Below, piece by piece: positions 5,219 through 57,004 of a stretch of 64,000 nucleotides of DNA. Source of the DNA: a virus; IMG/VR virus record IMGVR_UViG_3300045988_154892. One strand, given 5' to 3'. Below the pieces are notes generated by a model. It did no database searches, was not told where the DNA came from, and saw only the letters and a program-made list of their open reading frames with translations. Each line of letters starts with the position of its first letter. The first letter of the stretch is position 1. The translations under genes and the position numbers were made by a program.

Positions 5219-5905
5219 ATGTTTAAAGCACAACGAGGATTAAAAATTTGTTACAAAGTAGAAGATAAAATATTATCTCAACACTTTAAAACAATTGAAG
5301 ATTTTTTACAAACAGAATTTCCAAAGAGTAATAATCCATTGTCACCTACTCTTGATACAGAGATTACAGGAATTAAATGGAACGGCAGTACTATTTCTAT
5401 TCCCAATAAAATTCACACAGTAAGAGATTTGTCTGACTTATTAAGCAAAGAAAATGTAGAAAATATTTTTATTTCAAATAGAGATGTTAGGCTGCATAAG
5501 ATTAAACCAAAATATGATGATCTTATCAGAAAGTCCACATATTCCATAGAATATGTGGACAGTAAGGTTAAAGATGTTTTGTTTGAAAAAGACAAGCGAA
5601 ATGCAAAAGTTGATTTTGATGGAGATTTGATTAAAGGCAATAGTCAACGATATCAGACATTTTTTACAAAAGGCTGTAAATGCTCAGTTTGTGGAATTGA
5701 AGGACAATATTTTGCGAAAGAAAGACATTTGCAGGATAAAAGTTATCATCTGAATTTGTATGCAGTTGATGATAATGGTGATGAAATATTAATGACAAAA
5801 GATCATATTTTACCACGTTCAAAAGGTGGGATTGATGATATTAGTAACTATCAAACAATGTGTAAGCCTTGTAATGAAGCAAAAGGTAACAAATTAGAAG
5901 ATTAA
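5219..5905 (+). CDS. HNH endonuclease
   Basis: C-terminal DHILPRSKGGIDDISNYQTMCKPCNEAKGN is the HNH motif, preceded by CKCSVCG. Confidence 0.8.
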   Translation: MFKAQRGLKICYKVEDKILSQHFKTIEDFLQTEFPKSNNPLSPTLDTEITGIKWNGSTISIPNKIHTVRDLSDLLSKENVENIFISNRDVRLHKIKPKYDDLIRKSTYSIEYVDSKVKDVLFEKDKRNAKVDFDGDLIKGNSQRYQTFFTKGCKCSVCGIEGQYFAKERHLQDKSYHLNLYAVDDNGDEILMTKDHILPRSKGGIDDISNYQTMCKPCNEAKGNKLED

Positions 5906-5975: not shown

Positions 5976-7145
5976 TTGGAGAATAAGGAAAGAGCATTAG
6001 CCCATATTGAAAAAATTGAATGGGTAAAACCAATTGAAGGAGCAAATAATATTGAACTCATTGGAGTGTTAGGATGGGTTTGTGTAGCAAAGAAAGGTGA
6101 GTTTCAGACTGGTGATTTAGCAGTTTATATTGAAATTGATAGCAAGTGTCCTGAAAATGATGAACGTTTCGAGTTTCTGGCAAACAAGAAATACAAAGTC
6201 AAGACGATGAAACTTGGAAAGTTTAAAGTAATTAGTCAAGGATTAGCACTTCCATTATCTCTATTTCCAGAACTAGATGGAAAAAATATTGGTGATGATG
6301 TCAGCAAAGATCTCAAAATTACATATTCTTCTGAAGAAGATGTCAAACGAAAAAGCAATTCTATTGATCCCAATGCAAAATTCAAATCTATGGCAGCTCG
6401 CCATAAAAATCTCGCAAAGAAAAAATGGTTCAGATGGTTAATGAAACGTGAGTGGGGGAAGAAATTATTATTCTTCTTTCTTGGAAAGAAACGTGATAAT
6501 CCAAAGGAGTTTCCAAAATGGATTGTTAAAACCGACGAAACGAGAATTGAAAATGCTCCTTTTTACTTGCAGAATAAAAACCCATGGATTAAGACAGAAA
6601 AATTAGATGGTACTTCCTGTACATTCGCTATAGACCGGCAGAAGAAAGGTAAGGATAAATTCGAATTTATTGTTTGTAGCAGAAATGTCAGACAAGCAGA
6701 TAAAAATCAGGAATGCTATCATGACTCTAATATTTATTGGGAACTTGCTGATAAATACGGTATTGAAAGCGTATTAACAAAATTGGCAATTGAGAATAAT
6801 TATGATCGAGTTGTGCTACAGGGTGAAGGAGTTGGATACGTACAGGGTAATCCATATAAATTTAAAGAGAATAGATTGTATGTATTTAATCTTATTATTG
6901 AAGGTAATCGTGTAGGGACGAAAGAGATGGCAGATTTTTGTGATGGTAATAATCTGTTACATGTGCCGATTATTTCTACAGAATATTATTTACCTAAAAC
7001 AATGGAAGAAATGAAACTCGAAGCTGATGGATATAGTGAGATTAATCCAAAAGTTCGAAGAGAAGGATACGTCTATAGATCTCAGGATGGACAGCAGAGT
7101 TTTAAAAATGTCAGTCGAGAATATTTATTAAAACATAATGGATAG
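5976..7145 (+). CDS. ATP-dependent RNA ligase (DRB0094-like family)
   Basis: Nucleotidyltransferase motif I TEKLDGTS (KxDG). Also VLQGEGVGYVQGNPY and an N-terminal IEKIEWVKPIEGANNIE domain typical of this RNA-ligase family. Confidence 0.7.
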   Translation: MENKERALAHIEKIEWVKPIEGANNIELIGVLGWVCVAKKGEFQTGDLAVYIEIDSKCPENDERFEFLANKKYKVKTMKLGKFKVISQGLALPLSLFPELDGKNIGDDVSKDLKITYSSEEDVKRKSNSIDPNAKFKSMAARHKNLAKKKWFRWLMKREWGKKLLFFFLGKKRDNPKEFPKWIVKTDETRIENAPFYLQNKNPWIKTEKLDGTSCTFAIDRQKKGKDKFEFIVCSRNVRQADKNQECYHDSNIYWELADKYGIESVLTKLAIENNYDRVVLQGEGVGYVQGNPYKFKENRLYVFNLIIEGNRVGTKEMADFCDGNNLLHVPIISTEYYLPKTMEEMKLEADGYSEINPKVRREGYVYRSQDGQQSFKNVSREYLLKHNG

Positions 7146-7154
7146 GAGAATTGG

Positions 7155-8045
7155 ATGAATAGACCTACGCTTTGGGTTATGTGCGGGCTGAGTGGAAGCG
7201 GAAAATCTACCATTGCCAAGCAATTAGCACAGGAACATGAAAATACAGTTATCGTATCGTCAGATTCGGTCAGAGAAGAATTAACTGGCGATTATGAAAA
7301 TCAGGATCATAATGAAGAAGTATTTAAAATATTTCATAAAAAAATTCGTGAGAACTTAGAGAATAATAAAAATGTGATTGCTGATGCAACCAATATTACT
7401 ATGAAATCAAGACGTGCAATTCTTGAGAATGTAAAAGGAATTGATTGCCATAAGGTTGCTTATTTGATTCCAAAACCATTTAGGCAATGTAAGATTGATA
7501 ACCTAGACAGACAACATCCTGTGCCTGAAGAAGTGTTGGATAAGCAGATTAGAAAATTCCAGATTCCGTTCATAAAAGAGGGGTTTGACGAGGGGATTAT
7601 TCATTACATACATAATAAAAATAGATTAGATTCGTTAAAAATGTTTGATAATATGGAAGGCTTCAATCAGCAAAATCCACATCATACTTCGACACTTGCA
7701 GACCATTGTAAGAATACACATGAATTATTCTCAAGATATGGTTATCCGTCAAAATATAATCTGGCAGCGTTATTGCATGATTATGGGAAATTGTACTGTA
7801 AAGAATTAGATAATGATGGAGTTGCGCATTATTACGGGCATGATTCAATTGGTTCATATATGATTTTAGAAAATTTTGCAGAAATATTTTATAAAGACGT
7901 TGCAGATATGTGTTTTCTAATTAATTATCATATGATGCCATTTGCCTGGAATACAGAAAAAATTAAACGACGATGGAAAGAACGTTTTGGAGAATATAAA
8001 TATCAGATGTTATTAGACTTCCATGAATGTGACATTGCTCGATAG
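7155..8045 (+). CDS. polynucleotide 5'-kinase fused to an HD phosphohydrolase (RNA end-healing enzyme)
   Basis: N-terminal P-loop GLSGSGKST with SSDSVREEL and DATNIT...SRR. C-terminal HD signatures NPHHTS...LLHDYGK...YYGHDSIG. Adjacent to the RNA ligase. Confidence 0.7.
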   Translation: MNRPTLWVMCGLSGSGKSTIAKQLAQEHENTVIVSSDSVREELTGDYENQDHNEEVFKIFHKKIRENLENNKNVIADATNITMKSRRAILENVKGIDCHKVAYLIPKPFRQCKIDNLDRQHPVPEEVLDKQIRKFQIPFIKEGFDEGIIHYIHNKNRLDSLKMFDNMEGFNQQNPHHTSTLADHCKNTHELFSRYGYPSKYNLAALLHDYGKLYCKELDNDGVAHYYGHDSIGSYMILENFAEIFYKDVADMCFLINYHMMPFAWNTEKIKRRWKERFGEYKYQMLLDFHECDIAR

Positions 8046-8138
8046 AGAATAAAAATTAAGATGACTGAGATGGTCATTATTATTTTTGGACTATCTTTGT
8101 TATAGATATTCTAAAACAAATAGAAAAGGAGTGTAAAA

Positions 8139-10766
8139 TTGAAAGGACTAACAAACGAACAAGTAAAAATGAGTCGGGAAAAATATGGCTCAAACAAACT
8201 ACCAGAACCAAAGCTTAAGAAATGGTATGAATTTGCGATTGAAAATATCTTTGGTGATAAAACGCTGATGCTGTTATTAGCATTATCTGCATATGAGATT
8301 TTCGCTGCAGTATTTGGATTGGCATCATTTTCAGAACCAATCATGGTGATTTTAGTTATTTCATTATGTACATATATTGGTGTAAAAATGGCGCTTGGTA
8401 TTCAAAAATCAACACAAGAACTAAGAGCAAAGACATCAACTAGGTATTGTGATGTTATCAGAGATGGGCAAGTTCAGACAATCAACAAAGATAATTTAGT
8501 TGTTGGTGATGTGGTTTGTATTGGAACTGGACAGGAAATTTACGCGGATGGATATATTATTGAGGGTAAAATTTCTGTAAGCAATGCTGCTATCAACGGA
8601 GAAAGTAAAGAATGTCAGAAAATTCCAATTAATGGTTATGTATACAAAAAATCAACATCCACCGATGATTTTACGAATCAAAATAGCTTATTTGCTGGAA
8701 CAACGATTCTGTCTGGCGAAGGAAAGATGATCGTAGGCGAAGTTGGCGTAAACACCATAAATGGTGACACACTTGTAAAAATGCAGACACTTGAGCCACC
8801 TAAAACAGCACTTCAGATTGCGATCGATAAACTTTGTGATACAATTTCGAGATATGGAACTATTGCTGCAGTCGTCACGTTTATTGCACTTATGGTAACG
8901 GATATTGCGTATATTGGATTCAGAGAATATATCAATGGTGGTGTGCTAGAAGTTATCCAAAAGATTGCACAGAACATTTCGGTTGCTCTAACAATCATTG
9001 TAGCTGCTGTTCCAGAAGGACTTCCATTAATTATCAAGCTTGTTACAAAACAGAATGTTAAGACAATGGAACAGTTCAACATTCTTGCTAAAAATCCTAA
9101 TAAGATTCCTGAGTTAGCATACGTTGATCTTATTTGTACTGATAAAACAGGGACTCTTACGACTGGTGTTATGACGCCTGTAACTATTATTGATGGACAA
9201 GGTAATGAAGTAGATCATGGTTCTGATCTTTGGAAAAATATTGTAAATAATATTTGCTTAAACAACAGTGCTACATATGATTCAGAGAATAATATCACAG
9301 GTGGAAATTCCATTGACAGAGCGGTTTTAAGTCTTGTTAATCCAAAAGAATGTGAAGATATTTTTGGAAAGTATCCATTAGTTCAGAAGCAAACTTTTAG
9401 TAGTGAAAATAAGTATTCTGCTTTTGAGAGCAAATATAACTGGGGCGAATCGTTTACATATTATAAAGGAGCACCTGAAAAACTGATCGAGCATTGTACG
9501 CATTGGCTAGATTTAGAAGCCATTCCATTTGGTGGGGATGACAAGAAAAAGCTGTATGACAAAATTAAGGCTTTAACTGAAAAGTCTATGCGTTGTATCG
9601 CTCTTACATTTTCTAATTCACCGCTGGTGGAGAATACATTACCAGACAACATGGTACTTCTCGGAATCATCGGTGTCATTGACCCAGTAAGAAAAGAGGT
9701 TCCAAAGGCTGTGCAGGTCGCTCATGAAGCTGGCATTCAGGTTATCGAGATTACCGGTGATTGTCATGAAACTGCAGTAGCCGTTGCTACGGAAGCTGGC
9801 ATTTATAAAGAAGGTGATCTTGCCCTTACAAATGCACAGTTTGAAGCGATGTCTGACGATGAAGTCAAGAAAATTATTCCTGTACTTCGAGTAATTTCCA
9901 GATGCTCACCTAATACAAAACTGAGACTTGTAACATTAGCACAGGAGCTTGGTAGATCAGTAGCTATGACAGGTGACGGGGTTAATGATAGTCCAGCATT
10001 AAAACGAGCTGATGTAGGTTTCGGTATGAATGCTGGATCTGATGTAGCAAAAGAAGCATCCGATATTATTCTAACAGACAATAACTTCGCAAGTATTATT
10101 AGAGGTGTGGAACTTGGCAGAACATTTATGCACGATATCATGATGTTTTTGGAGTTTCAGTTGCCAATTAACTTTTCACTTCTTATTTTAAGTATTCTAT
10201 TTCCTATTTTATCTGGCGGAGTATTACTAGCTTCCGTTCAAATTCTGATTATCAATATTATCATGGACTCACTTAATTCCTTATCATTTGGCGGTGAACC
10301 TCCGAAAGCTGAATATATGACAGAGAATCCAATTAAGAAGGGTTCTGGATTGTTTATTCGAGGTGCAAAGAAACGAATTGCTATTAGCACAGTAACATTT
10401 ATTGTACTATATGGAATTCTTATGTTTTCACCAGTATCAAAATTATTTACAACAGATGTCGAAGCTATGACTGCAAGATTTGCAATGCTTTGCATCATGT
10501 CTGTATGCAATGGATTTGGTATTCGTACAGAACATATTAATTTGCTCAATGGACTGAAAAACAATAAAACATTTGTATATATTGCAGCAGGTATTGTACT
10601 TGGAACTATTGCCTTATGTAATGTACTCGGTGGACTTATCCAGGTAACAGCAATGAATATGAGTCAGTGGATCGCAATCATTGGACTATCACTCACGGTA
10701 ATCGTGGTTGATGTTATTCGAAAATTATTTATCAAAGGAGAGAATAAAAATCATGGGACTATTTGA
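8139..10766 (+). CDS. P-type cation-transporting ATPase (Ca2+-ATPase-like, P2 type)
   Basis: 875 aa. Phosphorylation site ICTDKTGTLT, hinge TGDGVNDSPALKRADVG, PEGLP in TM4, N-terminal LTNEQV..REKYGSNKL. TTG start after AAAGGAG. Confidence 0.9.
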   Translation: MKGLTNEQVKMSREKYGSNKLPEPKLKKWYEFAIENIFGDKTLMLLLALSAYEIFAAVFGLASFSEPIMVILVISLCTYIGVKMALGIQKSTQELRAKTSTRYCDVIRDGQVQTINKDNLVVGDVVCIGTGQEIYADGYIIEGKISVSNAAINGESKECQKIPINGYVYKKSTSTDDFTNQNSLFAGTTILSGEGKMIVGEVGVNTINGDTLVKMQTLEPPKTALQIAIDKLCDTISRYGTIAAVVTFIALMVTDIAYIGFREYINGGVLEVIQKIAQNISVALTIIVAAVPEGLPLIIKLVTKQNVKTMEQFNILAKNPNKIPELAYVDLICTDKTGTLTTGVMTPVTIIDGQGNEVDHGSDLWKNIVNNICLNNSATYDSENNITGGNSIDRAVLSLVNPKECEDIFGKYPLVQKQTFSSENKYSAFESKYNWGESFTYYKGAPEKLIEHCTHWLDLEAIPFGGDDKKKLYDKIKALTEKSMRCIALTFSNSPLVENTLPDNMVLLGIIGVIDPVRKEVPKAVQVAHEAGIQVIEITGDCHETAVAVATEAGIYKEGDLALTNAQFEAMSDDEVKKIIPVLRVISRCSPNTKLRLVTLAQELGRSVAMTGDGVNDSPALKRADVGFGMNAGSDVAKEASDIILTDNNFASIIRGVELGRTFMHDIMMFLEFQLPINFSLLILSILFPILSGGVLLASVQILIINIIMDSLNSLSFGGEPPKAEYMTENPIKKGSGLFIRGAKKRIAISTVTFIVLYGILMFSPVSKLFTTDVEAMTARFAMLCIMSVCNGFGIRTEHINLLNGLKNNKTFVYIAAGIVLGTIALCNVLGGLIQVTAMNMSQWIAIIGLSLTVIVVDVIRKLFIKGENKNHGTI

Positions 10767-11526
10767 CAAACTTTTTGGAAAAAAGACTTCAACAACAAAT
10801 ACTATGGCGGATAATACATCCGCTGTGGTACATGAAGAAAATGCAGCGCAGCCAGTTGTAATTGACATGTCTAAGTCAGCAGAAAATCTAAATAATGTGC
10901 TAATTAATATGTCGAAATCAAGCAAGATTGATATGACCAAGCATCAAGCAAGGGTTGCGCTCGCTATGGACTATTCTGGAAGTATGGGTAATCTTTTTGG
11001 AAACGGATCTGTACAAGATGTAATTACAAGACTTTTGCCAATCGCTCTTAAATTTGATGATGATGGTAAGTTAGAATCTTGGCTATTTTCAAATGATTTT
11101 GATTTTCTGAAACCAGTGACAATTGATAATTATAAGAACTATGTTCGAAAAATTATGATGAATTCTCGTATGAGCATGGGTGGAACTAATTACGCTCCAG
11201 TCTTGAAAGATATTGTTTCCTATTATAAGGACATTGAGCCAAGTACAATTCCAGCATTTATCATTTTTATTACAGATGGTGAAAATTGGGATACAGACGA
11301 AACAAATAAAATTGTGAGAGAGCTTTCTAATTACAATATGTTTGTACAGTTTGTTGGCATTGGAAATGAGAATTTTAGTTATCTGAGATCTCTGGATGAT
11401 ATGAAGGGTAGAAAATGTGACAACACTGGATTTATCGCAGTCAAAAACATGAATAGAATGATTGACGAAGAACTATATACAGAGCTTTTGAGACCATACA
11501 AAGATTGGCTAAATAACAAACAGTAA
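10753..11526 (+). CDS. vWA domain protein (TerF/TerY-like)
   Basis: MIDAS motif AMDYSGSMG, and FITDGEN. ATG 10753 follows AAGGAGAG and overlaps the ATPase stop by 14 nt. Confidence 0.75.
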   Translation: MGLFDKLFGKKTSTTNTMADNTSAVVHEENAAQPVVIDMSKSAENLNNVLINMSKSSKIDMTKHQARVALAMDYSGSMGNLFGNGSVQDVITRLLPIALKFDDDGKLESWLFSNDFDFLKPVTIDNYKNYVRKIMMNSRMSMGGTNYAPVLKDIVSYYKDIEPSTIPAFIIFITDGENWDTDETNKIVRELSNYNMFVQFVGIGNENFSYLRSLDDMKGRKCDNTGFIAVKNMNRMIDEELYTELLRPYKDWLNNKQ

Positions 11527-11545
11527 AAAAGGAGAATATAAAACT

Positions 11546-12184
11546 ATGGCAAACGTAATTAATATGAGTAAAAACCAGAAAATCAGCATGACAAAAGAAG
11601 ATGGAACTGCAATTAAAAACTTTTTCATCGGTGTAAATTGGGATCAGAACCGTTATGCTGGCGAAGCAGATATTGATTTTGATATTAACGGATTTCTTAC
11701 AAACGCTGACCGAAAGGTAACTTATCCAAAAGATATCGTAAACTATAATACATATGGTGATGGTAGCGGATATCCGTGGGTAGAATATTCTGGAGACAAT
11801 CTTACGGGCGATGATTCTCAAGGGATTACTTTTGACGGACATCATTATGATGAATATTTTATTATTCATGCAGATACATTTCCATCAGATAAAACAGACT
11901 TCACAATTTGCCTTACTATTTTCAGAGCTGTACAGAGACTACAGAATTTTGGAATGGTTAATAACGCAACTATGATGATCTGTGATTATGACAATCCGAC
12001 AACAAAATGGGAATATGATCTTTCTGAAAATGAGAATTTTGAAAAACTGAACGCTGTAGAAATGGGAAGATTATATAAATATGGTAACGGATTCAAATTT
12101 CAAGCACTAGGATCTGGTTATATGGGTGGAATGACAGAGCTATTCAAAAATTTTGGACTTGATATTGATGAAGGTAGGGACTAA
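11546..12184 (+). CDS. TerD-family stress protein
   Basis: TerD-like signatures: ISMTKEDG...GVNWD...DIDFDINGF...GDNLTGDD (Ca2+-binding acidic motifs). Confidence 0.7.
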   Translation: MANVINMSKNQKISMTKEDGTAIKNFFIGVNWDQNRYAGEADIDFDINGFLTNADRKVTYPKDIVNYNTYGDGSGYPWVEYSGDNLTGDDSQGITFDGHHYDEYFIIHADTFPSDKTDFTICLTIFRAVQRLQNFGMVNNATMMICDYDNPTTKWEYDLSENENFEKLNAVEMGRLYKYGNGFKFQALGSGYMGGMTELFKNFGLDIDEGRD

Positions 12185-12186
12185 TT

Positions 12187-12921
12187 ATGGCAACGTTCAT
12201 GATCGTAATTCTTGTAATTGCAGCAGTTATATTCTTTACAACAACTAAAACAGGTAAGAGACTAAAAATGAGAGCATCAGGAACTGCTGACGAAATGATT
12301 AGCAATGATGCGTCTACTCCAGATGGAGCTAAAGCGTATTATAATTCTATAATCTCCAAAAAAGGAGATAGTTATATAAAAGCAAATTCTTTATATACTC
12401 AAATTGAAGGTAAAATCCAGAATTATGAAACACAATTAAGACAGTTGCAGAAAGAGAATATGCAGATGGATCTTAGTGTTGCATCCTGTATTGATAGAAA
12501 TGATGACGAAGGTGCAAAAGCATATTTGGCGAAACAACAGGAAGTCGCAGACAAAATCGAAACGATTAAAACAACGCTAAAGGAATTAAAAGAGAATAGA
12601 GATGTACAGAAAGAAAATTTAACAGCTCTACAGGAAGAAATCAAATCTTTAAAAGCAGAAAAGGATAAAGCAGTATTCACACTCGAAGCTGCCGAAACTG
12701 TGAAATCTTTGCAATCTATTCCAAATACATCAACGCAGGAAGAAAATAAGATGCTTGAGAAAGTACGCGAAGGTGTCCAGAAAACAAAAGAGCAAGCTGA
12801 CGGCACAAGAATTGCTTATGAGAATTCCACTGACGTCCAGATGAAACGTTTGGATAAAAAGATGAAAGACGAAGAACTTCAGAAAAAATTAGATGCGCTG
12901 AAAGCAGCTCAGAAAAAATAA
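12187..12921 (+). CDS. PspA/IM30-like coiled-coil protein with N-terminal TM anchor
   Basis: TM helix MATFMIVILVIAAVIFFTTT, then a PspA-like coiled coil (DDEGAKAYLAKQQEVADKIE...). The start lies 2 nt after the TerD stop. Confidence 0.6.
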   Translation: MATFMIVILVIAAVIFFTTTKTGKRLKMRASGTADEMISNDASTPDGAKAYYNSIISKKGDSYIKANSLYTQIEGKIQNYETQLRQLQKENMQMDLSVASCIDRNDDEGAKAYLAKQQEVADKIETIKTTLKELKENRDVQKENLTALQEEIKSLKAEKDKAVFTLEAAETVKSLQSIPNTSTQEENKMLEKVREGVQKTKEQADGTRIAYENSTDVQMKRLDKKMKDEELQKKLDALKAAQKK

Positions 12922-13652: not shown

Positions 13653-13868
13653 ATGAATGAATATTGGTTAATGTTATTTTTAACGTTAGTATTAGAAATT
13701 GTTGCGATTGCAGTTGTGTCTGTATTTGGAATGACATTTATCGCAAAATCATATGATAAAATTATTGCTTATGTTGAAAAACGATGGGGAGAGGATGTAA
13801 GTTTTGGAGTATCATGCGGAATCATTTTGACTTTCTTGTTTATCACGTTAGCTGTGATTTTTTGTTAG
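13653..13868 (+). CDS. small two-TM membrane protein
   Basis: Same frame as track ORF 13527..13868. ATG 13653 follows AGGAGAG. Hydrophobic segments LMLFLTLVLEIVAIAVVSVF and CGIILTFLFITLAVIF. Confidence 0.5.
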   Translation: MNEYWLMLFLTLVLEIVAIAVVSVFGMTFIAKSYDKIIAYVEKRWGEDVSFGVSCGIILTFLFITLAVIFC

Positions 13869-14024
13869 AGAATAAATAATTGTCCAAGCATGAAAGACAT
13901 AAAACTTATCATGTATCGCAATACAAGCTTCCACTTGTAATAAACTGATCACTTAAGCGATGGGTTTGGATCAGCATCCTTGTTAGGAAACATCCTAAAC
14001 TGATGAAGCAACTATCGCACACAT

Positions 14025-14105
14025 GCTGGCGTGGCGGAATTGGTATACGCACTGGCTTCAAATACCAGGATCACAGATATGTGGGTTCGAGTCCCACCGT
14101 CAGTA
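14025..14105 (+). tRNA. tRNA-Leu (anticodon CAA), class II, no encoded CCA
   Basis: Hand-folded cloverleaf. Acceptor GCTGGCG/CGTCAGT has two G:U pairs. D arm GCG-GAATTGGTATA-CGC. Anticodon loop TTCAAAT (CAA at 14059-61, C31:A39 mismatch). Long variable arm. T arm GTGGG-TTCGAGT-CCCAC. Confidence 0.75.
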
Positions 14106-14109
14106 TTTA

Positions 14110-14261: not shown

Positions 14262-14335
14262 GGATCATTAGTTCAGTAGGTTAGAACGCCCAGCTCATAA
14301 CTGGGAAGTCACTGGTTCAAGTCCAGTATGATCCA
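14262..14335 (+). tRNA. tRNA-Met or Ile2 (anticodon CAT), no encoded CCA
   Basis: Perfect cloverleaf. Acceptor GGATCAT/ATGATCC. D arm GTTC-AGTAGGTTA-GAAC. Anticodon arm CCCAG-CTCATAA-CTGGG. T arm ACTGG-TTCAAGT-CCAGT. A paired 1:72 argues against an initiator. Confidence 0.9.
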
Positions 14336-14425
14336 CTTTACTTTTCTGAAGGAATATAATGGATGATTGTATCATTTGACTTGATGAAAAGTTAATTTCA
14401 TAAGTTTTAAAGAAAGGAAGTAGTT

Positions 14426-49507: not shown

Positions 49508-50250
49508 ACAATTATGAACTAGTAACAGATCTCTCAAATAATAAGCTCAGAAAGAATGGATTCACCTTTGGTTGTTATCGAATGAGTGTATATAAAGATA
49601 CGATTGAGTTTCGTCTATATATTGATATTGAGGAACAGGACGTATTCTATCAAGTGTTCGACTCAGATCATAATCAGCTCTATATTCCTTATTACAACAG
49701 AAAATATGGTAATAACAAGATTGTAAAAGAGATTGATAGAAAAATTAATCGTATCATAAAAACTATGATGAACCAAAAAATCCTAAAGAAAACAAAAGAA
49801 GAGGAGAAAAATACTATGGATACAGAAACAATTAAAATTAAATACTTTGCAGATATCGAACCAATCGCACCTATTCAAAATGGTGATTGGATTGACCTAA
49901 GAGCTGCAGAAGACGTACATCTCAAAAAAGGTGAATTTAGACTTATTTCTCTTGGCGTTGGAATGAAACTTCCTGATGGATATGAAGCGCACATTGCACC
50001 TAGAAGCAGTACATATAAGAATTTTAAGATTATGCAATGTAACTCGATTGGGATCGTTGATAACTCTTACAGTGGGCCACAGGACTGTTGGAAATATCCA
50101 GCAATTGCTATGGAAGATACAGTTATCCATAAAAACGATCGTATCTGTCAGTTCCGTATCATGAAGAAACAGCCAGAAATTCATTTCGAAACTGTTAAAG
50201 AGCTAAGTGGCAAAAGTCGTGGTGGTTTTGGAAGTACAGGTAAAAACTAA
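49495..50250 (+). CDS. dut: dUTPase with ~105-aa N-terminal extension (internal start possible at 49816)
   Basis: The C-terminal 145 aa carry trimeric dUTPase motifs (DLRA, PRSS, GIVDNSYSG, RGGFGSTG). An in-frame ATG at 49816 is preceded by GAGGAG. Confidence 0.8.
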   Translation: MLDLNNYELVTDLSNNKLRKNGFTFGCYRMSVYKDTIEFRLYIDIEEQDVFYQVFDSDHNQLYIPYYNRKYGNNKIVKEIDRKINRIIKTMMNQKILKKTKEEEKNTMDTETIKIKYFADIEPIAPIQNGDWIDLRAAEDVHLKKGEFRLISLGVGMKLPDGYEAHIAPRSSTYKNFKIMQCNSIGIVDNSYSGPQDCWKYPAIAMEDTVIHKNDRICQFRIMKKQPEIHFETVKELSGKSRGGFGSTGKN

Positions 50251-50251
50251 T

Positions 50252-50452
50252 ATGGACGACGATCTGCAATACAGAGAAGAAAATTGGGCATGGGATGCTC
50301 AATGTGCAGCGGTGGATGAGAGAATATTAACTTGTCCACGCTGCGGATCAATTATGCTTCCTCAGTTCCAAAGATATGAATATATGGGAGCTGGATGGGA
50401 AGAATGGTATGAATGTACCAATGGCACATGTGGCTATTGTTGCAAAATATAA
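50252..50452 (+). CDS. small Zn-ribbon protein
   Basis: Same frame as track ORF 50207..50452, using ATG 50252. CPRCGS...CTNGTCGYCC. Confidence 0.5.
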   Translation: MDDDLQYREENWAWDAQCAAVDERILTCPRCGSIMLPQFQRYEYMGAGWEEWYECTNGTCGYCCKI

Positions 50453-50475
50453 ATTATGCAAAGGAGAACAAAACA

Positions 50476-50715
50476 ATGAAACTACAAAAACAAATCATTC
50501 TTGACAACGTTGATAAAGTAAAAGCGTTTGTTATGACAGTCAGCAAATATCCTGGGGATGCAACACTTACATCTGGAAGATATGTTGTTGATGCAAAATC
50601 CATTATGGGTATCTTCAGCCTTGCTCTAAATCAGCCAATTGATTTTACCTATGAAGGTGAACTAGCAGCAGAGCTTGCGAAAGAAGTCCAAGTATACGAA
50701 AGTCAGGAGGTATAA
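50476..50715 (+). CDS. HPr/Crh-like small protein lacking His15 (second copy)
   Basis: VDAKSIMGIFSLAL matches the HPr Ser46 region. No His at the phosphocarrier position. ATG 50476 follows AAGGAGAA. Confidence 0.55.
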   Translation: MKLQKQIILDNVDKVKAFVMTVSKYPGDATLTSGRYVVDAKSIMGIFSLALNQPIDFTYEGELAAELAKEVQVYESQEV

Positions 50716-50719
50716 ACCA

Positions 50720-51340
50720 TTGAATAATTTTAAGAAAAAACTAACAACTACTGTAACTCTACTAACCGTATTACTCACTCCAACACTGGCTAATGCAGAG
50801 ACTAAATATGTCGAACCTAGCATCGGTCTTAATTATCGAACAGGTGATTCTGTTAAGTCTCAGAAGATTGGTGCTCTTCCATATGGAGCATCAGTAGAGG
50901 TGCTTGACATCACAGAGAGCAACTGGGCAAAAGTACAGATTGGCGATAATGTATTCTATATGTCAAATGAATATCTTTCTGATACCCCACTTATCGCAGA
51001 GCCTATTCAACAGGCTGAACCAATTGAGACGGAATCCGTAGAGACAACTTCTTATTCCTGCTACAGTCTTGGTACATATCGAATCACTCATTACTGCGGA
51101 TGTGCAAACTGCAATGGTTCCTGGGCTGGCAGTCCAACGGCATCTGGTGCATATCCTGTAGCTGGCAGAACAGTTGCCATGGCTGATTTACCGTTTGGAA
51201 CTGAAGTAGAAATTAACGGTCAGATCTACACTGTAGAAGATCGTGGAGTGCCGAGTGGATGCGTTGATATTTATGTCGACAACCATTCTGAAGCTCTTAA
51301 TGCAGGTATGTATTATGCAGAAGTTAGAGTAGTGGGATAG
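50720..51340 (+). CDS. secreted SH3 + 3D-domain cell-wall protein
   Basis: TTG 50720 lies 9 nt after AGGAGG. Signal peptide ...TVLLTPTLANA. 3D-domain signature YRITHYCGC..CNG...TASG...VA.......G..V...G..YTVEDRG...DIY. Confidence 0.7.
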   Translation: MNNFKKKLTTTVTLLTVLLTPTLANAETKYVEPSIGLNYRTGDSVKSQKIGALPYGASVEVLDITESNWAKVQIGDNVFYMSNEYLSDTPLIAEPIQQAEPIETESVETTSYSCYSLGTYRITHYCGCANCNGSWAGSPTASGAYPVAGRTVAMADLPFGTEVEINGQIYTVEDRGVPSGCVDIYVDNHSEALNAGMYYAEVRVVG

Positions 51341-51369
51341 TTGACATGGAGAAAATCTGAGGTTATAAT
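51341..51369 (+). promoter_or_regulatory. perfect sigma70/sigmaA consensus promoter
   Basis: TTGACA (51341-46), 17-nt spacer, TATAAT (51364-69). Begins directly after the stop codon at 51338-40. Confidence 0.7.
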
Positions 51370-51385
51370 ATCCCCAACAAGGTTT
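51355..51385 (-). repeat. copy 1 (inverted) of the TTGGGGAT-core repeat
   Basis: The minus strand reads TTGTTGGGGATATTATAACCTCAGAT. Core ATCCCCAA at 51370-77. Overlaps the -10 box. Confidence 0.55.
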
Positions 51386-51571
51386 TCTCTATGTCCCAGG
51401 GCAATCCAGTTGATCCTCAAAAGGGCAAAGTCACTGATCCCCTAGCCGTTCGCTAACAGATCACCAACCGCCCCTTTTCCGGATCATCAGCCCGGACACA
51501 AGCCCAACCATCTATAAAATCAAAATGAAGACCTTGTAACCATGAAAAATGTGGTTATGAGGTCTTTTTTT
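51376..51571 (+). ncRNA. orphan ~195-nt transcription unit (sRNA or leader; contains a 21-codon sORF 51391..51456)
   Basis: Bounded by the consensus promoter and a strong terminator. The interior is visibly GC-richer than its flanks. No SD precedes ATG 51391. Confidence 0.5.
51529..51571. terminator. strong, probably bidirectional, rho-independent terminator
   Basis: AGACCTTGTAACCA (51529-42) pairs with TGGTTATGAGGTCT (51552-65): 14 bp including 2 G:U, 9-nt loop, then T7. The reverse complement is followed by CATTTTGATTTT. Confidence 0.75.
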
Positions 51572-51614
51572 ATATTAATAGCAAATTATGCACAGATAAA
51601 AAGGCTTAAATACT

Positions 51615-51645
51615 GGGTTTTGGGGATGTGCAATTTTGAAATTTC
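51615..51645 (+). repeat. copy 2 of the TTGGGGAT-core repeat
   Basis: TTTTGGGGATGTGCAATT at 51618-35, which is 17/18 identical to copy 3. Core at 51620-27. Confidence 0.65.
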
Positions 51646-51707
51646 CCGATGAAACTGGGATTTCATCTGCTTTTATCTATCCCATATCCATTTCTCACCT
51701 GCCCTCT

Positions 51708-51848
51708 TCAAACATAGACTAAACCTTCCAGTCGGAAAAGTTTATACGAAATATATGTCAAAATATCTATTAAATATTCTATAGTCATATCAGCGGCAGA
51801 ACCAACAGTTTTGCCCTTTTTAGGCTCAAGGAGGTTGCCTTGAAACAT
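51708..51848 (-). CDS. 46-codon sORF whose 5' end is homologous to sORF 51391
   Basis: Minus-strand ATG at 51848: MFQGNLLEPKKGKTVGSAADMTIEYLIDILTYISYKLFRLEGLVYV*. The first ~16 codons align with MSQGNPVDPQKGKVTD, with synonymous differences. Confidence 0.3.
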   Translation of the reverse strand: MFQGNLLEPKKGKTVGSAADMTIEYLIDILTYISYKLFRLEGLVYV

Positions 51849-51864
51849 AGTATATTTTTTACTC

Positions 51865-51895
51865 TATTTTTGGGGATGTGTAATTATAGATATTA
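51865..51895 (+). repeat. copy 3 of the TTGGGGAT-core repeat (candidate tnsA-proximal transposon terminus)
   Basis: TTTTGGGGATGTGTAATT at 51868-85, core at 51870-77. The reverse complement contains TATAAT. Confidence 0.6.
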
Positions 51896-51945
51896 AAAAG
51901 TCTGGGAACCCGCATAAACACTGGATTCTTGATTTCCCAGATTTT

Positions 51946-52044
51946 CCCAAAAACAACAGGATTTGGGTACTTATTCTTACACACGCCCAAAAACAAGCAT
52001 TTTTGGGTACTTTTCGAAACACACATAATTCATTTTTGGGTAAC
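51946..52044 (+). repeat. three direct TnsB-binding-site-like repeats upstream of tnsA
   Basis: CCCAAAAACAACAGGATTTGGGTAC (51946-70), CCCAAAAACAAGCATTTTTGGGTAC (51986-52010), CATAATTCATTTTTGGGTAAC (52024-44). TTTGGGTA starts at 51962, 52002 and 52035. Confidence 0.55.
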
Positions 52045-52077
52045 TTTTTCGACACATAAAATCAAAGGAGGTACACT

Positions 52078-52422
52078 ATGTACAAGAAAAACTACAAAGG
52101 ACGCTGTGAGAAAAAGTCTCTTTCTAAATGTGACACGATCTGCCGATGCTATAGCACCATCCAATCTGTTTATGCAGACAAACTGGAAACCGATCCATCT
52201 GTTCAATCCTTTCAATGTAACACGCCACTCGAAGATGAAGACTACACAACAGACTTCCTTATTACACGACAGGACGGCACGCAATATGTCCGAGAGTGTG
52301 TAGAACGAAGTCATCTGACCAGGCCCAAGCCACTTACAATCAAACTTCTGGACACATCACGTTCCTACTGGCTTGCCCATAACGTTCAAGATTGGGGGAT
52401 TGTAACAGATGCAGAAAGCTGA
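52078..52422 (+). CDS. tnsA: short TnsA-like protein (N-terminal nuclease fold only, catalytic residues apparently substituted)
   Basis: AAGGAGG SD upstream. STIQSVYADKLETDPSVQSF..TPL, YTTDFLI and SYW....WGIVTDAE align with Tn7 TnsA SDLE...FPL, STDFLV and RYW...WFIFTDKE (alignment from memory). 114 aa. Confidence 0.6.
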   Translation: MYKKNYKGRCEKKSLSKCDTICRCYSTIQSVYADKLETDPSVQSFQCNTPLEDEDYTTDFLITRQDGTQYVRECVERSHLTRPKPLTIKLLDTSRSYWLAHNVQDWGIVTDAES

Positions 52423-54142
52423 TATAGCCTATATCAATAACACGTTCTACAGAATTTTAAAGACATCAGATAACCAGACCCTTGTAATTGACTGTCTCCA
52501 TCCGAAAATGCCATTCTGGACGATCAGAACGCAATATACCCCATTGCCAGAGAAGCAATTATATGATGTTCTAAACATCACACCACCAGATGTGAAAGAC
52601 CTTACATCTGATCAGATGCGCATTGCACATGAGCGGTACACACTGATTGCACCAATTTTATACCACTTAGGAGAAAGCACAGCAACTGCAAACATCATCT
52701 CTTCCATCTCAGAAGAGCATAACATTAGTAAGCAGACCATCCGCCGCTATCTATATCAATATCTAATCTTTCAGACCATCACTGTACTTGCACCAAAAGT
52801 TCATACGAAAGAAAAGGTGCTGACTAAAGATGAGAAGAACATGAGATGGGCATTGAATAAGTTCTTCTATACACGCAGACAAAACAGTCTTGTGACAGCA
52901 TATGAGATGATGTTAAAAGAAAAGTATTGTGACAGCATGGGACAGCTACTATCCGATCATCCATCCTTTTATCAGTTCCGATACTTTTACCGGAAAACTA
53001 AGAAGCTCCAAACTTATTATATTTCCAGAGATGGACTGTCAAATTACCAGAGGAACAATCGTCCCTTGCTAGGAGATGGTATCCGTGAGTTCGCAACCAA
53101 TATCGGTACTGGTATGTTTGATTCCACCGTATGTGACATTTACCTTATTGACGAAACCGGTACCTTAAAAGGTCGTCCGATCCTAACCACTTGCATTGAT
53201 GCTTACAGCAGTATGTGTTATGGCTATGTTCTCTCATGGAATAACGATACAAAGAGTTTATGCCATCTGCTCCAAAATATACTTACCGACAAAACAGAAT
53301 GGTGTAGAAAGTTTGGTATCCCATTAGACAAATCCCAGTGGAACGTGCAAGAGTTACCGGGCATCTTTATCACTGATATGGGACGGGAATACACATCAGA
53401 ATCCTTTGCACAGATCACAGAAACAGGCGTGACTATGGTAAATCTTCCACCATACAGACCAGAGTTGAAAGGTGCTGTAGAGAAATTCTTTGACATCATT
53501 CAATCCATGTATAAACCACTTCTCAAGGGTAAAGGTGTGATTGATCCGGACTTCCAGGAACGAGGTGCAAGAGATTACAGATTAGATGCTTGCTTGACAA
53601 TGTTTGATTTTGAGAAGATCATCTTACGCTGTATCATTTACTATAACAGTCAACGGCTCATAGAACGATTCCCTTACACACAATCTATGATTCATGATGG
53701 AGTAAAGCCATATGCAGCCAGTTTATGGGAATGGGGAAGACGGCAACCAGGCGCAAATTTAATTTCATTCCCGCATGATACCGCGAAAATAATCCTATAT
53801 CTGCTCCCACGTACCATTGGGACATTCACTAGGCGTGGTCTAGTGGTAAAAGGGATGCGGTATAAACGGGATGATTGCGCCGAAAGATTCCTGCAAGGTG
53901 GAGATGTTAAGGTTGCTTACGATCCAGATGATGTATCTGTAGTATGGACAGTAGAGAAGGGCGAGTTTATTCCTTTTGAATTGGTTGAAAGCAGATATAA
54001 GAATAGAAAATTGGATGAAGTAGAGCAGATCAAAGAACAGAGCAAAACAACACTACGTTCTGAACAAATCAATGCAAGACAGGCGAAAATTAATTTGATG
54101 AATGAGATCGAGTTGATTGCTAGGGGAGGAGTTAAAAGATGA
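52409..54142 (+). CDS. tnsB: TnsB-like DDE transposase
   Basis: HTH ISKQTIRRYLYQY. DDE candidates CDIYLID, ITDMGREYTS and YRPELKGAVEKFF. Mu-transposase-type C-terminal barrel GLVVKGMRYKRD. Confidence 0.85.
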   Translation: MQKADIAYINNTFYRILKTSDNQTLVIDCLHPKMPFWTIRTQYTPLPEKQLYDVLNITPPDVKDLTSDQMRIAHERYTLIAPILYHLGESTATANIISSISEEHNISKQTIRRYLYQYLIFQTITVLAPKVHTKEKVLTKDEKNMRWALNKFFYTRRQNSLVTAYEMMLKEKYCDSMGQLLSDHPSFYQFRYFYRKTKKLQTYYISRDGLSNYQRNNRPLLGDGIREFATNIGTGMFDSTVCDIYLIDETGTLKGRPILTTCIDAYSSMCYGYVLSWNNDTKSLCHLLQNILTDKTEWCRKFGIPLDKSQWNVQELPGIFITDMGREYTSESFAQITETGVTMVNLPPYRPELKGAVEKFFDIIQSMYKPLLKGKGVIDPDFQERGARDYRLDACLTMFDFEKIILRCIIYYNSQRLIERFPYTQSMIHDGVKPYAASLWEWGRRQPGANLISFPHDTAKIILYLLPRTIGTFTRRGLVVKGMRYKRDDCAERFLQGGDVKVAYDPDDVSVVWTVEKGEFIPFELVESRYKNRKLDEVEQIKEQSKTTLRSEQINARQAKINLMNEIELIARGGVKR

Positions 54143-55347
54143 ACGGTAAATTACTTTCACAATTGCCTGATTTTTTATGTGAAAACGAATTAGTAGAACG
54201 ACTGAAGATATTACCAAACTATAATATAAACATTGCCAATGAAACAATACCAACTCGTCTTCTTGCGTTATCAGAATTATATGATATTTATATTCCATCA
54301 CAATTATCTGTTGATGTATATAATAAATTGTATATGGCATTACTCAGATCGATTAAGAAAAAAGAAAATGATATGATGGTAAAACAGCAAAGAATCGAAA
54401 ATACAACAAACACCATACAAACGTATAATGGTATTATAGGTGGTGCTGATTCGTTTACAATCATTGGAGTTTCTGGCATAGGGAAGAGTAGTGCTATTAC
54501 CAGAGCGATCTCATTGATTTTCGGAAATCATTTTATCGAAACAACAGACCCATATCAACGAATTGCTCCTTTTATACTTGTGCAATGCCCATTTGACTCT
54601 TCTGTAAAAAGTCTATTGTTAGAAATCGTTCGTATTCTTGATGCTACATTGGATGGAGATTATTTACAGATAGCACAACGGTATACGACGGATAGACTAA
54701 TCGGTTTTGTTAGCCAAATATGTTTAAATCATGTTGGGGTACTTATTGTTGATGAGATTCAAAATGTAGTTAATAATAAAAACGGTGATAAACTTATTGG
54801 GGCATTAACACAGATTATAAATAGTAGTGGAATTAGTGTAGGCATGGTTGGAACACCAGAATGTCTACATTGGTTTGAAAGCGCACCACATCTGGAACGA
54901 AGGACAATAGGCTTGCGATATTTACGGACTGATTATGATGATGATTTTATACATTTTTGCAAAAATCTATTAAAATTTCAATATGTGCAACAATACACAG
55001 AACCATCAGAAAAATTTATAAATTGGTTGTATGCTCATTCAAACGGAGTGACATCAACTGTTGTATCATTATTTTATAGAGCACAAGAATTAGCCATTAT
55101 GAGTAACACAGAGAAATTAAGTATTGATATTTTTAATGCGTCATACAATGGGCTGATGTCTATGCAAGTAGAAAAAGTGCAAAAGAAAAATAGTCAAACA
55201 GTCAATAAATCACATAAAGAAATAACAATTCATCATTCGAATGGTGTTAATATTGCTGACTTATACAATTATTCACAATCTAATAACTATGATCTCTTAA
55301 CTCTTATCAAAAATACTTTTACTGTTGAAGAGGTGGAAATATGTTAA
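54139..55347 (+). CDS. tnsC: TnsC/TniB-like AAA+ ATPase
   Basis: Walker A GVSGIGKSS, Walker B LIVDEIQN. 4-nt overlap with tnsB. Confidence 0.85.
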   Translation: MNGKLLSQLPDFLCENELVERLKILPNYNINIANETIPTRLLALSELYDIYIPSQLSVDVYNKLYMALLRSIKKKENDMMVKQQRIENTTNTIQTYNGIIGGADSFTIIGVSGIGKSSAITRAISLIFGNHFIETTDPYQRIAPFILVQCPFDSSVKSLLLEIVRILDATLDGDYLQIAQRYTTDRLIGFVSQICLNHVGVLIVDEIQNVVNNKNGDKLIGALTQIINSSGISVGMVGTPECLHWFESAPHLERRTIGLRYLRTDYDDDFIHFCKNLLKFQYVQQYTEPSEKFINWLYAHSNGVTSTVVSLFYRAQELAIMSNTEKLSIDIFNASYNGLMSMQVEKVQKKNSQTVNKSHKEITIHHSNGVNIADLYNYSQSNNYDLLTLIKNTFTVEEVEIC

Positions 55348-56825: not shown

Positions 56826-56828
56826 AAA

Positions 56829-56877
56829 ATGGGGAATACCAAAATTAATTGATATTCCCCATAAAATTATTGCATCA
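56829..56877. repeat. inverted repeat / candidate distal transposon end
   Basis: ATGGGGAATA (56829-38) and TATTCCCCAT (56853-62) form a perfect 10-bp IR with a 14-nt spacer. The reverse complement reads TGCAATAATTTTATGGGGAATATCAATTAATTTTGGTATTCC, resembling the tnsA-side repeats. Confidence 0.45.
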
Positions 56878-57004
56878 TTTTATCTTATATGATATACTAT
56901 TTTTGCACTGATGAAACGGTTGTTTCATATGATGGTGAAAAAAGAATATTTTCTTTTCTGGCTGTCTGATGAAGGCGGCTTTTCTTATTTCACGCGTATA
57001 TTTA

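Follow-up and report, generated by a model that had tools for sequence, protein, structure and literature searches.

A conserved phage operon that unites a Ca2+-type P-type ATPase with a TerF-type vWA protein, TerD and a PspA-like protein

What does a phage gain from encoding a Ca2+-type pump back to back with proteins of the Ter and PspA kinds, and is such a set of genes the phage's own? The question is raised by positions 8139-12921 of a 64,000-nucleotide stretch of viral DNA, IMG/VR record IMGVR_UViG_3300045988_154892 (the whole stretch is called the window here), which code for a P2-type Ca2+-ATPase, a TerF-type vWA protein, a TerD protein and a PspA/IM30-like protein. The four-gene module is a real, conserved and intact phage operon. 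As to its purpose, we infer a function in protecting the membrane and Ca2+ balance of the infected cell, or in superinfection exclusion. The reading preferred here is that the genes constitute a phage-adapted, abbreviated Ter-type envelope module of the protective kind. We give it a probability of about 0.5, a figure which applies jointly to that mechanism and to the four genes being a single transcription unit with its own promoter-like element.

The four genes and their products

The layout of the locus is as follows.

8061-8087, plus strand: terminator-like hairpin ATGAC-TGAGATG-GTCAT, then a T-rich run; read directly from the sequence
8097-8117, plus strand: promoter-like element TTGTTATAGATATTCTAAAAC, with an extended -10-like TGnTATAGA/TATAAA inside it; from locus comparison
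8139-10766, plus strand: P2-type Ca2+-ATPase open reading frame, 875 aa, TTG start
10753-11526, plus strand: vWA-TerF-like open reading frame, 257 aa counted from the ATG (the mechanical reading frame begins earlier, at a TTG at 10708)
11546-12184, plus strand: TerD open reading frame, 212 aa
12187-12921, plus strand: PspA/IM30-like open reading frame, 244 aa

The end of the ATPase gene overlaps the start of the vWA gene by 14 nucleotides, and gaps of 19 and 2 nucleotides separate vWA from TerD and TerD from the PspA-like gene, exactly as described in the first-pass annotation of this DNA. An AAGGAG sequence at 8126-8131 lies seven bases upstream of the TTG start of the ATPase gene. The hairpin stands between an upstream kinase gene and the operon, and an equivalent hairpin and T-run are kept in related loci even where the upstream gene is a different one. 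The element TTGTTATAGATATTCTAAAAC is conserved 5' of the ATPase gene in loci with 67-100% ATPase identity while its flanks diverge, and it occurs once in the window against 0.04 occurrences expected by chance. It emerged from the comparison of loci; a simple promoter and terminator scan gave a signal no higher than the shuffled expectation. The two features appear to be a dedicated terminator and promoter in a moron-like layout, and it is their conservation, together with the overlap and the short gaps, which argues for an operon.

The ATPase matches the Pfam families E1-E2_ATPase, Cation_ATPase_N and Cation_ATPase_C. Among the NCBIfam models the PMCA-type TIGR01517 ranks first with 455 bits, followed by the PMR1 type (376) and the SERCA type (309), and the Mg, K and heavy-metal P-type models score far lower than TIGR01517. 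The nearest solved structures are those of Arabidopsis ACA8 (2.6e-89), Listeria LMCA1 (2e-85), SPCA1 and SERCA. On these matches the protein is classed as a Ca-type P2 pump, though below equivalog-level membership of any named subfamily; grouping with heavy-metal or K+ pumps, which the first-pass annotation had named as an outcome that would count against it, is not what the family models and solved relatives gave. The translation contains the motifs quoted in that annotation, ICTDKTGTLTTG and MTGDGVNDSPALK, and the catalytic motifs are TDKTGTLT, TGDGVNDSPALK (with the TGDGVND hinge) and, in the A-domain, NGES, in which the glutamate of the usual TGES is kept and the threonine is replaced by asparagine. 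Conservation among 72 unique homologues is nearly complete, with DKTGT in all 72 and TGDGxND in 70, plus one GGDGSND variant.

The M4 sequence AVPEGLP and the M6 sequence I(I/V)NI(I/V)MDSL align with their counterparts in ACA8 and LMCA1, and the ligands of Ca2+ site II (the M4 PEGL glutamate and the M6 asparagine and aspartate) are all present; PEGL is found in 72/72 homologues and the M6 motif, under a strict pattern, in 65/72. The M5 position of the SERCA site-I glutamate is non-acidic, as it is in PMCA and LMCA1. P2 pumps without that glutamate are predicted to have one Ca2+ site, and a single-site Ca2+ pump of the PMCA/LMCA1 kind is strongly supported by the sequence. Compared to PMCA, ACA8 and LMCA1, with which it shares the full domain set, DKTGT and TGDGVND as well as the features above, the phage pump is minimal at 875 aa, has no autoinhibitory or calmodulin-binding tail and carries NGES rather than TGES.

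The ATPase is least conserved at residues 51-100, the lowest 50-aa stretch, and at 401-500. Its alleles are mosaic, as is seen when the window is compared with loci L010, L015 and L022: one relative is about 100% identical past residue 300 and just 42-86% identical before it, and another also diverges at residues 350-500. In both of these relatives the vWA and TerD proteins are still 95-97% identical, and the mosaicism indicates recombination within the operon. Apparent internal stops in 20 ATPase homologues, considered as signs of pseudogenes or recoding, proved to be natural stop codons at the ends of the alignments.

The second protein matches the family vWA-TerF-like (PF10138; 200 bits, E = 4e-59), with a secondary match to Copine at 2.5e-10. 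Its MIDAS is intact (MDYSGSM, ie D-Y-S-G-S, followed by GGT and TDG), and the motif is retained in 58 of 59 unique homologues. Residues 1-64 have no match to TerD, and the vWA domain begins at residue 65. Since a true TerF has an N-terminal TerD domain fused to the vWA domain, the protein is best described from its sequence as a stand-alone TerF-type vWA. The earlier assignment to the TerF/TerY kind is sound as regards the MIDAS and the family, and has to be narrowed in that only the vWA part of TerF is represented; the protein is neither TerF nor TerY. Its N-terminus (10753-10785) reads MGLFDKLFGKK and is conserved, with MGLFDFLKKK in a homologue of 59% identity. We take this to resemble the start of alpha0, the amphipathic helix of Vipp1/PspA, which is the very element that the PspA-like protein of the operon has exchanged for a transmembrane (TM) helix. 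The segment could be a membrane-binding stub, or the resemblance could be a coincidence.

The TerD protein was confirmed by its family model (PF02342, 123 bits against a gathering score of 25.3, E = 1e-35), and it aligns over its full length with the structures 2KXT (Klebsiella TerD) and 3IBZ. It has DIDFDI and GDNLTG...YDE, where the canonical Ca2+-binding loop is GDN(R/L)TGEGDGDDE with a DxDxD strand. TerD, whose family includes known Ca2+ binders, and the vWA protein are both taken to be cytoplasmic.

The fourth protein is the least secure assignment. PspA_IM30 (PF04012) is the family matched by most of its homologues (15/18), and a distant homologue in MT835556 scores 42.4 bits on that model. 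The AlphaFold model has a mean pLDDT of 78, rising above 90 across residues 50-170, the hairpin, and predicts an N-terminal TM helix at about residues 2-19, a hairpin of helices 45-103 and 107-176, and a C-terminal helix at 183-243. In a Foldseek search of the PDB with this model, the 13 best matches were all Vipp1 or PspA, each with a probability of 1.0. A K/R-rich patch comes after the N-terminal segment, which is conserved and hydrophobic; no alpha0 was found, the conserved TM segment standing in its place. The positive-inside rule predicts that the coiled coil lies in the cytoplasm, tethered to the membrane's inner face. With moderate confidence, the protein is a distant, membrane-anchored PspA/IM30-like ESCRT-III superfamily member. 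The name PspA/IM30 given earlier thus survives through the homologues and the fold comparison, qualified by the distance of the relationship, a score below the Pfam threshold and the TM anchor. A relationship to TelA was considered and rejected (hhalign probability 0.1).

Conservation and origin

When IMG/VR was scanned with the ATPase, 28 loci of 64-100% identity came up. The order ATPase-vWA-TerD-PspA-like (A-V-T-P) is present in 22 of them, and the other six have a second architecture, ATPase-TerDx3-PspA-like (A-T-T-T-P), in which three canonical TerD genes stand instead of vWA and TerD; the TerD copies of this variant have the canonical Ca2+ loop. A scan with an alignment of the PspA-like protein returned 233 relatives, of which the best 80 loci were examined. 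A-V-T-P was found in 74 of these 80, and among the remaining six, four are cut by contig ends, one has a split ATPase and one has an ATPase fragment and the PspA-like gene only. A-T-T-T-P was the order at 61 of 65 further loci returned by a second scan, which was weighted towards the other lineage. Counting both architectures, more than 130 independent viral contigs show the arrangement again, which is more than chance would give; how often the set occurs in other phages was a point the first-pass annotation had wanted checked. In the clades studied, every complete viral locus found through the PspA-like protein also has the ATPase and TerD.

The association persists over long distances. A divergent phage-like contig, with a ribonucleotide reductase and a RecD-type helicase, keeps A-V-T-P at identities of 40% for the ATPase, 59% for the vWA protein, 52% for TerD and 39% for the PspA-like protein. 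The flanks of the module change through insertions of HNH, GIY-YIG, IS605 and small open reading frames, and the four-gene block stays intact. All four genes are under purifying selection, with dN/dS of 0.02-0.2 overall: 0.10-0.21 for the ATPase at unsaturated distances, about 0.10 for vWA, 0.07-0.10 for the PspA-like gene and 0.02-0.04 for TerD, the most constrained of the four. No pseudogenes were found, and essentially every unique sequence keeps the catalytic and MIDAS motifs.

Outside these phage lineages, no protein above about 42% identity to the ATPase was found among 1.84 billion representative proteins. The relatives at about 42% lie in ordinary chromosomal contexts of metagenome-assembled genomes (MAGs) of gut Alphaproteobacteria; they have no Ter neighbours, and no donor was identified. 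In 185,579 species genomes the PspA-like protein occurs at only seven loci, five with the phage-type module, one a 1.2-kb fragment and one with the PspA-like gene but no module. Because the closest cellular pump is so distant and the PspA-like protein so rare in cells, the module is old in phages and not recent host DNA. The competing idea, that a fragment of host DNA was captured recently and serves no purpose in the phage, might draw on the G+C content over the ATPase, which at 0.36 is slightly above that of most of the window (about 0.30-0.35). It is effectively refuted by the number of viral contigs, by ATPase identities as low as 40% among them, by the selection on all four genes and by the two cellular searches just described. 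A non-conserved capture with disrupted motifs, which the first-pass annotation had put forward as fatal to its proposal, is excluded on the same grounds: the cluster is old, conserved and intact.

Pumps of this type are joined to TerD in bacteria as well. The record MT836648 (MT836648.1), labelled 'Bacteriophage sp.', has the order MarR-PRTase_2/TRSP-StiP-YceG-TelA-TerDx3-P-type ATPase, and is bacterial chromosomal DNA as it also carries MetRS-like, MoaC and TatD genes. An abundant, high-G+C gut bacterium has a chromosomal Ca-ATPase-TerDx3-AIM24 cluster adjoining the S10 ribosomal operon. In Bacillus, the position held by the pump in the MT836648 cluster is occupied by the TerC-family YceF. 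Since gut bacterial operons join a Ca-type ATPase to three TerD genes, in one case within a full Ter cluster, the phage module may be regarded by analogy as an abbreviated Ter-type system with the pump at the TerC position and the anchored PspA-like protein at the TelA position. In the A-T-T-T-P form the PspA-like gene occupies the TelA position, and the two proteins show no homology. Like the cellular Ter operons of the Bacillus yceCDEFGH type, which set one to three TerD paralogues beside a membrane transporter and an all-helical sub-membrane protein, the phage module has these elements, and the TerF-type vWA domain is part of the Ter repertoire too. Unlike them, it lacks adjoining TerC, TelA, TerB, YceG, StiP and PRTase genes, and its pump is about 34% identical to the Ter-linked bacterial pumps, no closer than to other Ca2+ pumps. 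The Ter repertoire of the module is confined to TerD and the TerF-type vWA, with no TerC, TelA, TerB or PRTase/HAD genes beside them; no Ter family was found by Pfam in the larger flanking open reading frames, to which that scan was confined, nor in the called flanking genes of related loci. The module is Ter-like in layout, and is not a canonical member by the definition of Anantharaman et al. 2012.

The TerC position bears on what the pump carries. TerC-family proteins export Mn2+, and pumps of the PMR1/SPCA type carry Mn2+ as well as Ca2+. The phage pump might then be a TerC analogue, exporting Mn2+ or another metal in order to metalate extracytoplasmic enzymes or for detoxification, and both its place in the cellular Ter cluster and its second-best NCBIfam model, the PMR1 type, are in line with this. 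The best matches of the pump, however, are PMCA-type proteins and LMCA1, its M6 sequence NIIMD resembles the NLIMD of ACA8, and TerD is a known binder of Ca2+. We regard export of a metal other than Ca2+ as very improbable.

After the bacterial Ca-ATPase-TerDx3 genes of loci L131/L132 (15154-17048) come an AIM24-family protein and a 370-aa protein, which may be further partners of TerD in cells. No similarity was found between the 370-aa protein and the PspA-like protein. A second record labelled 'Bacteriophage sp.', MT840059.1, is a fragment of 4.5 kb at 59% G+C, and a bacterial contig of 2.3 Mb encodes a near-identical pump.

What the module may do

In the mechanism preferred here, the pump would move Ca2+ out of the host's cytoplasm, whether the cell is undergoing infection or is in a carrier state. 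Divalent cations would be sensed or bound by TerD and the vWA protein, which would join the anchored PspA-like scaffold in an assembly beneath the membrane. With this assembly in place, the membrane would stay sealed and cytosolic Ca2+ would stay low under attack on the envelope, be it from superinfecting phages, pore-forming bacteriocins, the pores of abortive infection or early leakage through the holin. The pump and the PspA-like protein would take the places that TerC and TelA have in cellular Ter operons. The idea put forward in the first-pass annotation, that the phage manipulates Ca2+ and envelope homeostasis against abortive infection or premature lysis, fits this anatomy as far as it can be read from sequence. 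The benefit could be a general resistance to membrane damage or, more specifically, the exclusion of competing phages.

Several results weigh against this reading. The ATPase score of 455 bits is below 507, the equivalog cut-off of TIGR01517, and the ion specificity is a prediction from sequence, so that Mn2+ or another cation is possible. The Ca2+-binding loop of the TerD protein contains an insertion of 8 residues (GDNLTGDDSQGITFDGHHYDE), and Ca2+ binding is not assured. The PspA-like protein scores 23.1 bits on PspA_IM30, under the gathering score of 33.9; its family profile, run against PDB sequences, returned coiled-coil noise only, eg haemagglutinin HA2, and the Foldseek matches to Vipp1 and PspA have E-values of only about 1e-3 and TM-scores of about 0.5. 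The module can be lost and occasionally decays: in locus L105 the ATPase gene is split by an insertion of about 1.6 kb, and in L113 an N-terminal fragment of the ATPase abuts the PspA-like gene, the vWA and TerD genes having been deleted. Finally, the PADLOC defence models gave no meaningful hit and no known defence family.

The last result bears equally on superinfection exclusion proper, in which the complex would block the entry or establishment of the DNA of competing phages and plasmids, with Ca2+ export as the means. Plasmid ter operons, with their phenotypes of phage inhibition and colicin resistance, offer a parallel for such a role. In jumbo phages, Iyer et al. 2021 reported shortened Ter operons (TerD, TerC, TerF, TelA); in their proposal, sub-membrane structures built from TelA and the TerF vWA protein act against superinfecting phages (PMC7824862). 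The operons they described resemble the present one in having TerD and a TerF-type vWA in abbreviated sets of large phages; they use TerC and TelA, where a P-type ATPase and a TM-anchored PspA-like protein are found here, and their phages infect Caulobacter and Acinetobacter rather than gut Bacillota. Exclusion is also favoured by the position of the module among accessory and counter-defence genes (an RNA ligase and a PNK-like kinase in the window, restriction-alleviation genes in relatives), by the mosaic ATPase alleles with their lowest conservation at residues 51-100, and by a near-identical phage, present as a contig of about 210 kb in the assembly of a Blautia isolate; this is compatible with a carrier state, where exclusion would be of benefit. 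Besides the PADLOC result, it has to be said that exclusion overlaps heavily with the protective envelope module, the difference being mainly in the selective benefit. As an explanation in its own right we consider it unlikely.

A further alternative arises from the Jug phages (bioRxiv 2025, Sci Adv 2026). In that study Ca2+-translocating P-type ATPases were reported as new to phages, with such pumps in 85 further gut phages, some of them nearest to Bacillota pumps; terD adjoins a pspA-like gene and is transcribed with it as an operon, and the Ca-ATPase and the TerD/pspA-like operon are both highly transcribed (PMC12880540). The authors proposed that the phage manipulates host Ca2+ (PMC12880540). 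Ca2+ export itself might then be the function, resetting host Ca2+ with consequences for metabolism, sporulation or stress signalling, and TerD, the vWA protein and the PspA-like protein would only regulate the pump or help to insert it. The very high transcription of the Jug-phage pump is consistent with this, and the bacterial operons which pair a pump with TerD and have no PspA-like gene suggest that TerD is a partner of the pump. However, the Jug-phage pump is encoded separately from the TerD/pspA-like pair and evidently does not need it, and the presence of ATPase and TerD at every complete viral locus found through the PspA-like protein argues for a joint membrane function. This explanation appears rather improbable. 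The Jug phages are alike in being huge gut phages with a Ca2+-type P-type ATPase and a terD/pspA-like pair (PMC12880540); their pump lies in a separate operon with a protein of 77-91 aa, no vWA gene is mentioned and the hosts are Bacteroides, whereas all four genes form one unit here and the hosts are apparently Clostridia. These phages and the jumbo-phage operons also mean that Ter clusters cannot be treated as host systems only, as the first-pass annotation had done (PMC7824862, PMC12880540).

A PspA-like protein with a TM anchor also has precedent. PspA/Snf7 homologues with a TM segment were reported from ABC-transporter operons by Ravi et al. 2024, in a paper in which TerD, vWA and Ca2+ do not occur (PMC11237479). 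Distant homologues of the PspA-like protein stand beside an ABC permease, an ABC ATPase and NMT1/OmpA-domain proteins in Bacillus phage G (gp243-250), in MT835556 and in locus L037, and the phage G gp247 and MT835556 proteins are detectably homologous to that of the window. These loci represent a second combination, carried by phages, of a transporter and a TM-anchored PspA-like protein. Like the module, these systems encode an N-terminally TM-anchored PspA-like protein beside a membrane transporter; in contrast, their transporter consists of an ABC permease and ATPase, accompanied by a solute-binding OmpA-domain protein, and there is no TerD, vWA or P-type pump. Phage G gp246 was considered as a hidden TerD and showed no similarity.

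A bolder extension, which we regard as speculative and unlikely, is that the module is the counterpart, in prokaryotes and viruses, of the Ca2+-triggered membrane repair carried out by ESCRT-III in eukaryotes. Ca2+ entering through a lesion would be bound by TerD and the copine-like vWA protein; these would recruit or activate the anchored PspA/ESCRT-III-like polymer, which would seal the lesion, and the PMCA-like pump would clear the Ca2+ and reset the system. If this were true, the Ter genes would encode factors that sense Ca2+ and repair membranes, and phages would have a portable form of the system with which to keep the host alive until lysis. No paper combining PspA, ESCRT-III and TerD was found, in a literature search of incomplete coverage.

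The gut huge-phage Ca-ATPases, the Jug TerD/pspA-like pair and the jumbo-phage Ter operons were each published separately between 2021 and 2026. Within the same incomplete coverage, the fusion of the four genes into one unit, the two architectures and the interpretation as a Ter variant were not found described. What TerD and Ter systems do has been unclear for decades, and in this unit TerD is genetically linked to a pump of the Ca2+ type, to a vWA protein with a MIDAS and to an ESCRT-III-like membrane protein. It is strongly conserved, and the phages that carry it are frequent in the human-gut-derived sequence collections searched. It takes the gut-phage Ca2+ pump beyond a lone gene, into a defined module that includes partners, offers a compact, clonable system for asking whether Ter proteins are Ca2+-linked membrane-protection factors, and suggests how large Clostridia phages may stabilise or guard the host cell.

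The phage and the surroundings of the operon

The window is phage DNA, as the first-pass annotation had taken it to be. Besides the operon, it has genes for an HNH endonuclease, an RNA ligase, a PNK-like kinase, a DnaB-like helicase, a PD-(D/E)XK nuclease, a DnaE-type polymerase, a RecD-like helicase, an NAD-dependent ligase, the anaerobic ribonucleotide reductase NrdD, an amidase endolysin and a tail-fibre protein. An identical ATPase protein is encoded on a 144-kb IMG/VR contig, and relatives of up to 99% identity lie on contigs of up to about 215 kb. The phage is of roughly 200 kb, comes from the gut and probably infects anaerobic Gram-positive bacteria, to which its NrdD and Gram-positive-type endolysin point. 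Near-identical contigs are labelled at NCBI as Blautia sp. AF17-9LB, Ruminococcus sp. AM36-2AA, Oscillospiraceae MAGs and Lachnoclostridium MAGs, and the contig of about 210 kb mentioned above is part of the Blautia isolate assembly. The hosts are apparently Clostridia (gut Bacillota), a naming which rests on the assembly labels only. A megablast of the operon against GenBank phages gave no match, and a tblastn of the ATPase against the same phages gave hits of 34% identity at most, and no cultured relative. Most of these hits are unannotated records named as phages or whole bacterial contigs, and so probably host DNA; many of the matched 'Listeria phage' and 'Enterococcus phage' records are unannotated contigs, which may likewise be host DNA.

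Directly 5' of the operon, at 5976-8045, are the RNA ligase (PHA02142 OB domain) and the PNK-like AAA_33/KTI12 kinase, whose C-terminus is of the HD type. A GIY-YIG homing endonuclease or small open reading frames interrupt or replace the kinase gene in related phages, and the HNH gene at 5219-5905 is found in only some loci. Phage G has the same gene order of RNA ligase, kinase, transporter and PspA-like gene. On the 3' side, a small protein with two predicted TM helices (13656-13868) is 93-100% identical in close relatives and absent from divergent lineages which keep the four-gene module. Shortly 3' of the operon there are also two tRNA genes, for Leu(CAA) at 14024-14106 and Met(CAT) at 14262-14336. 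Further along the window, an island at about 50000-57000 has a G+C content of 0.40 against about 0.32, and codes for a transposase (52409-54142), an AAA+-type DNA transposition protein (54139-55347) and a 494-aa protein. The island probably represents a transposon that has inserted into the phage genome.

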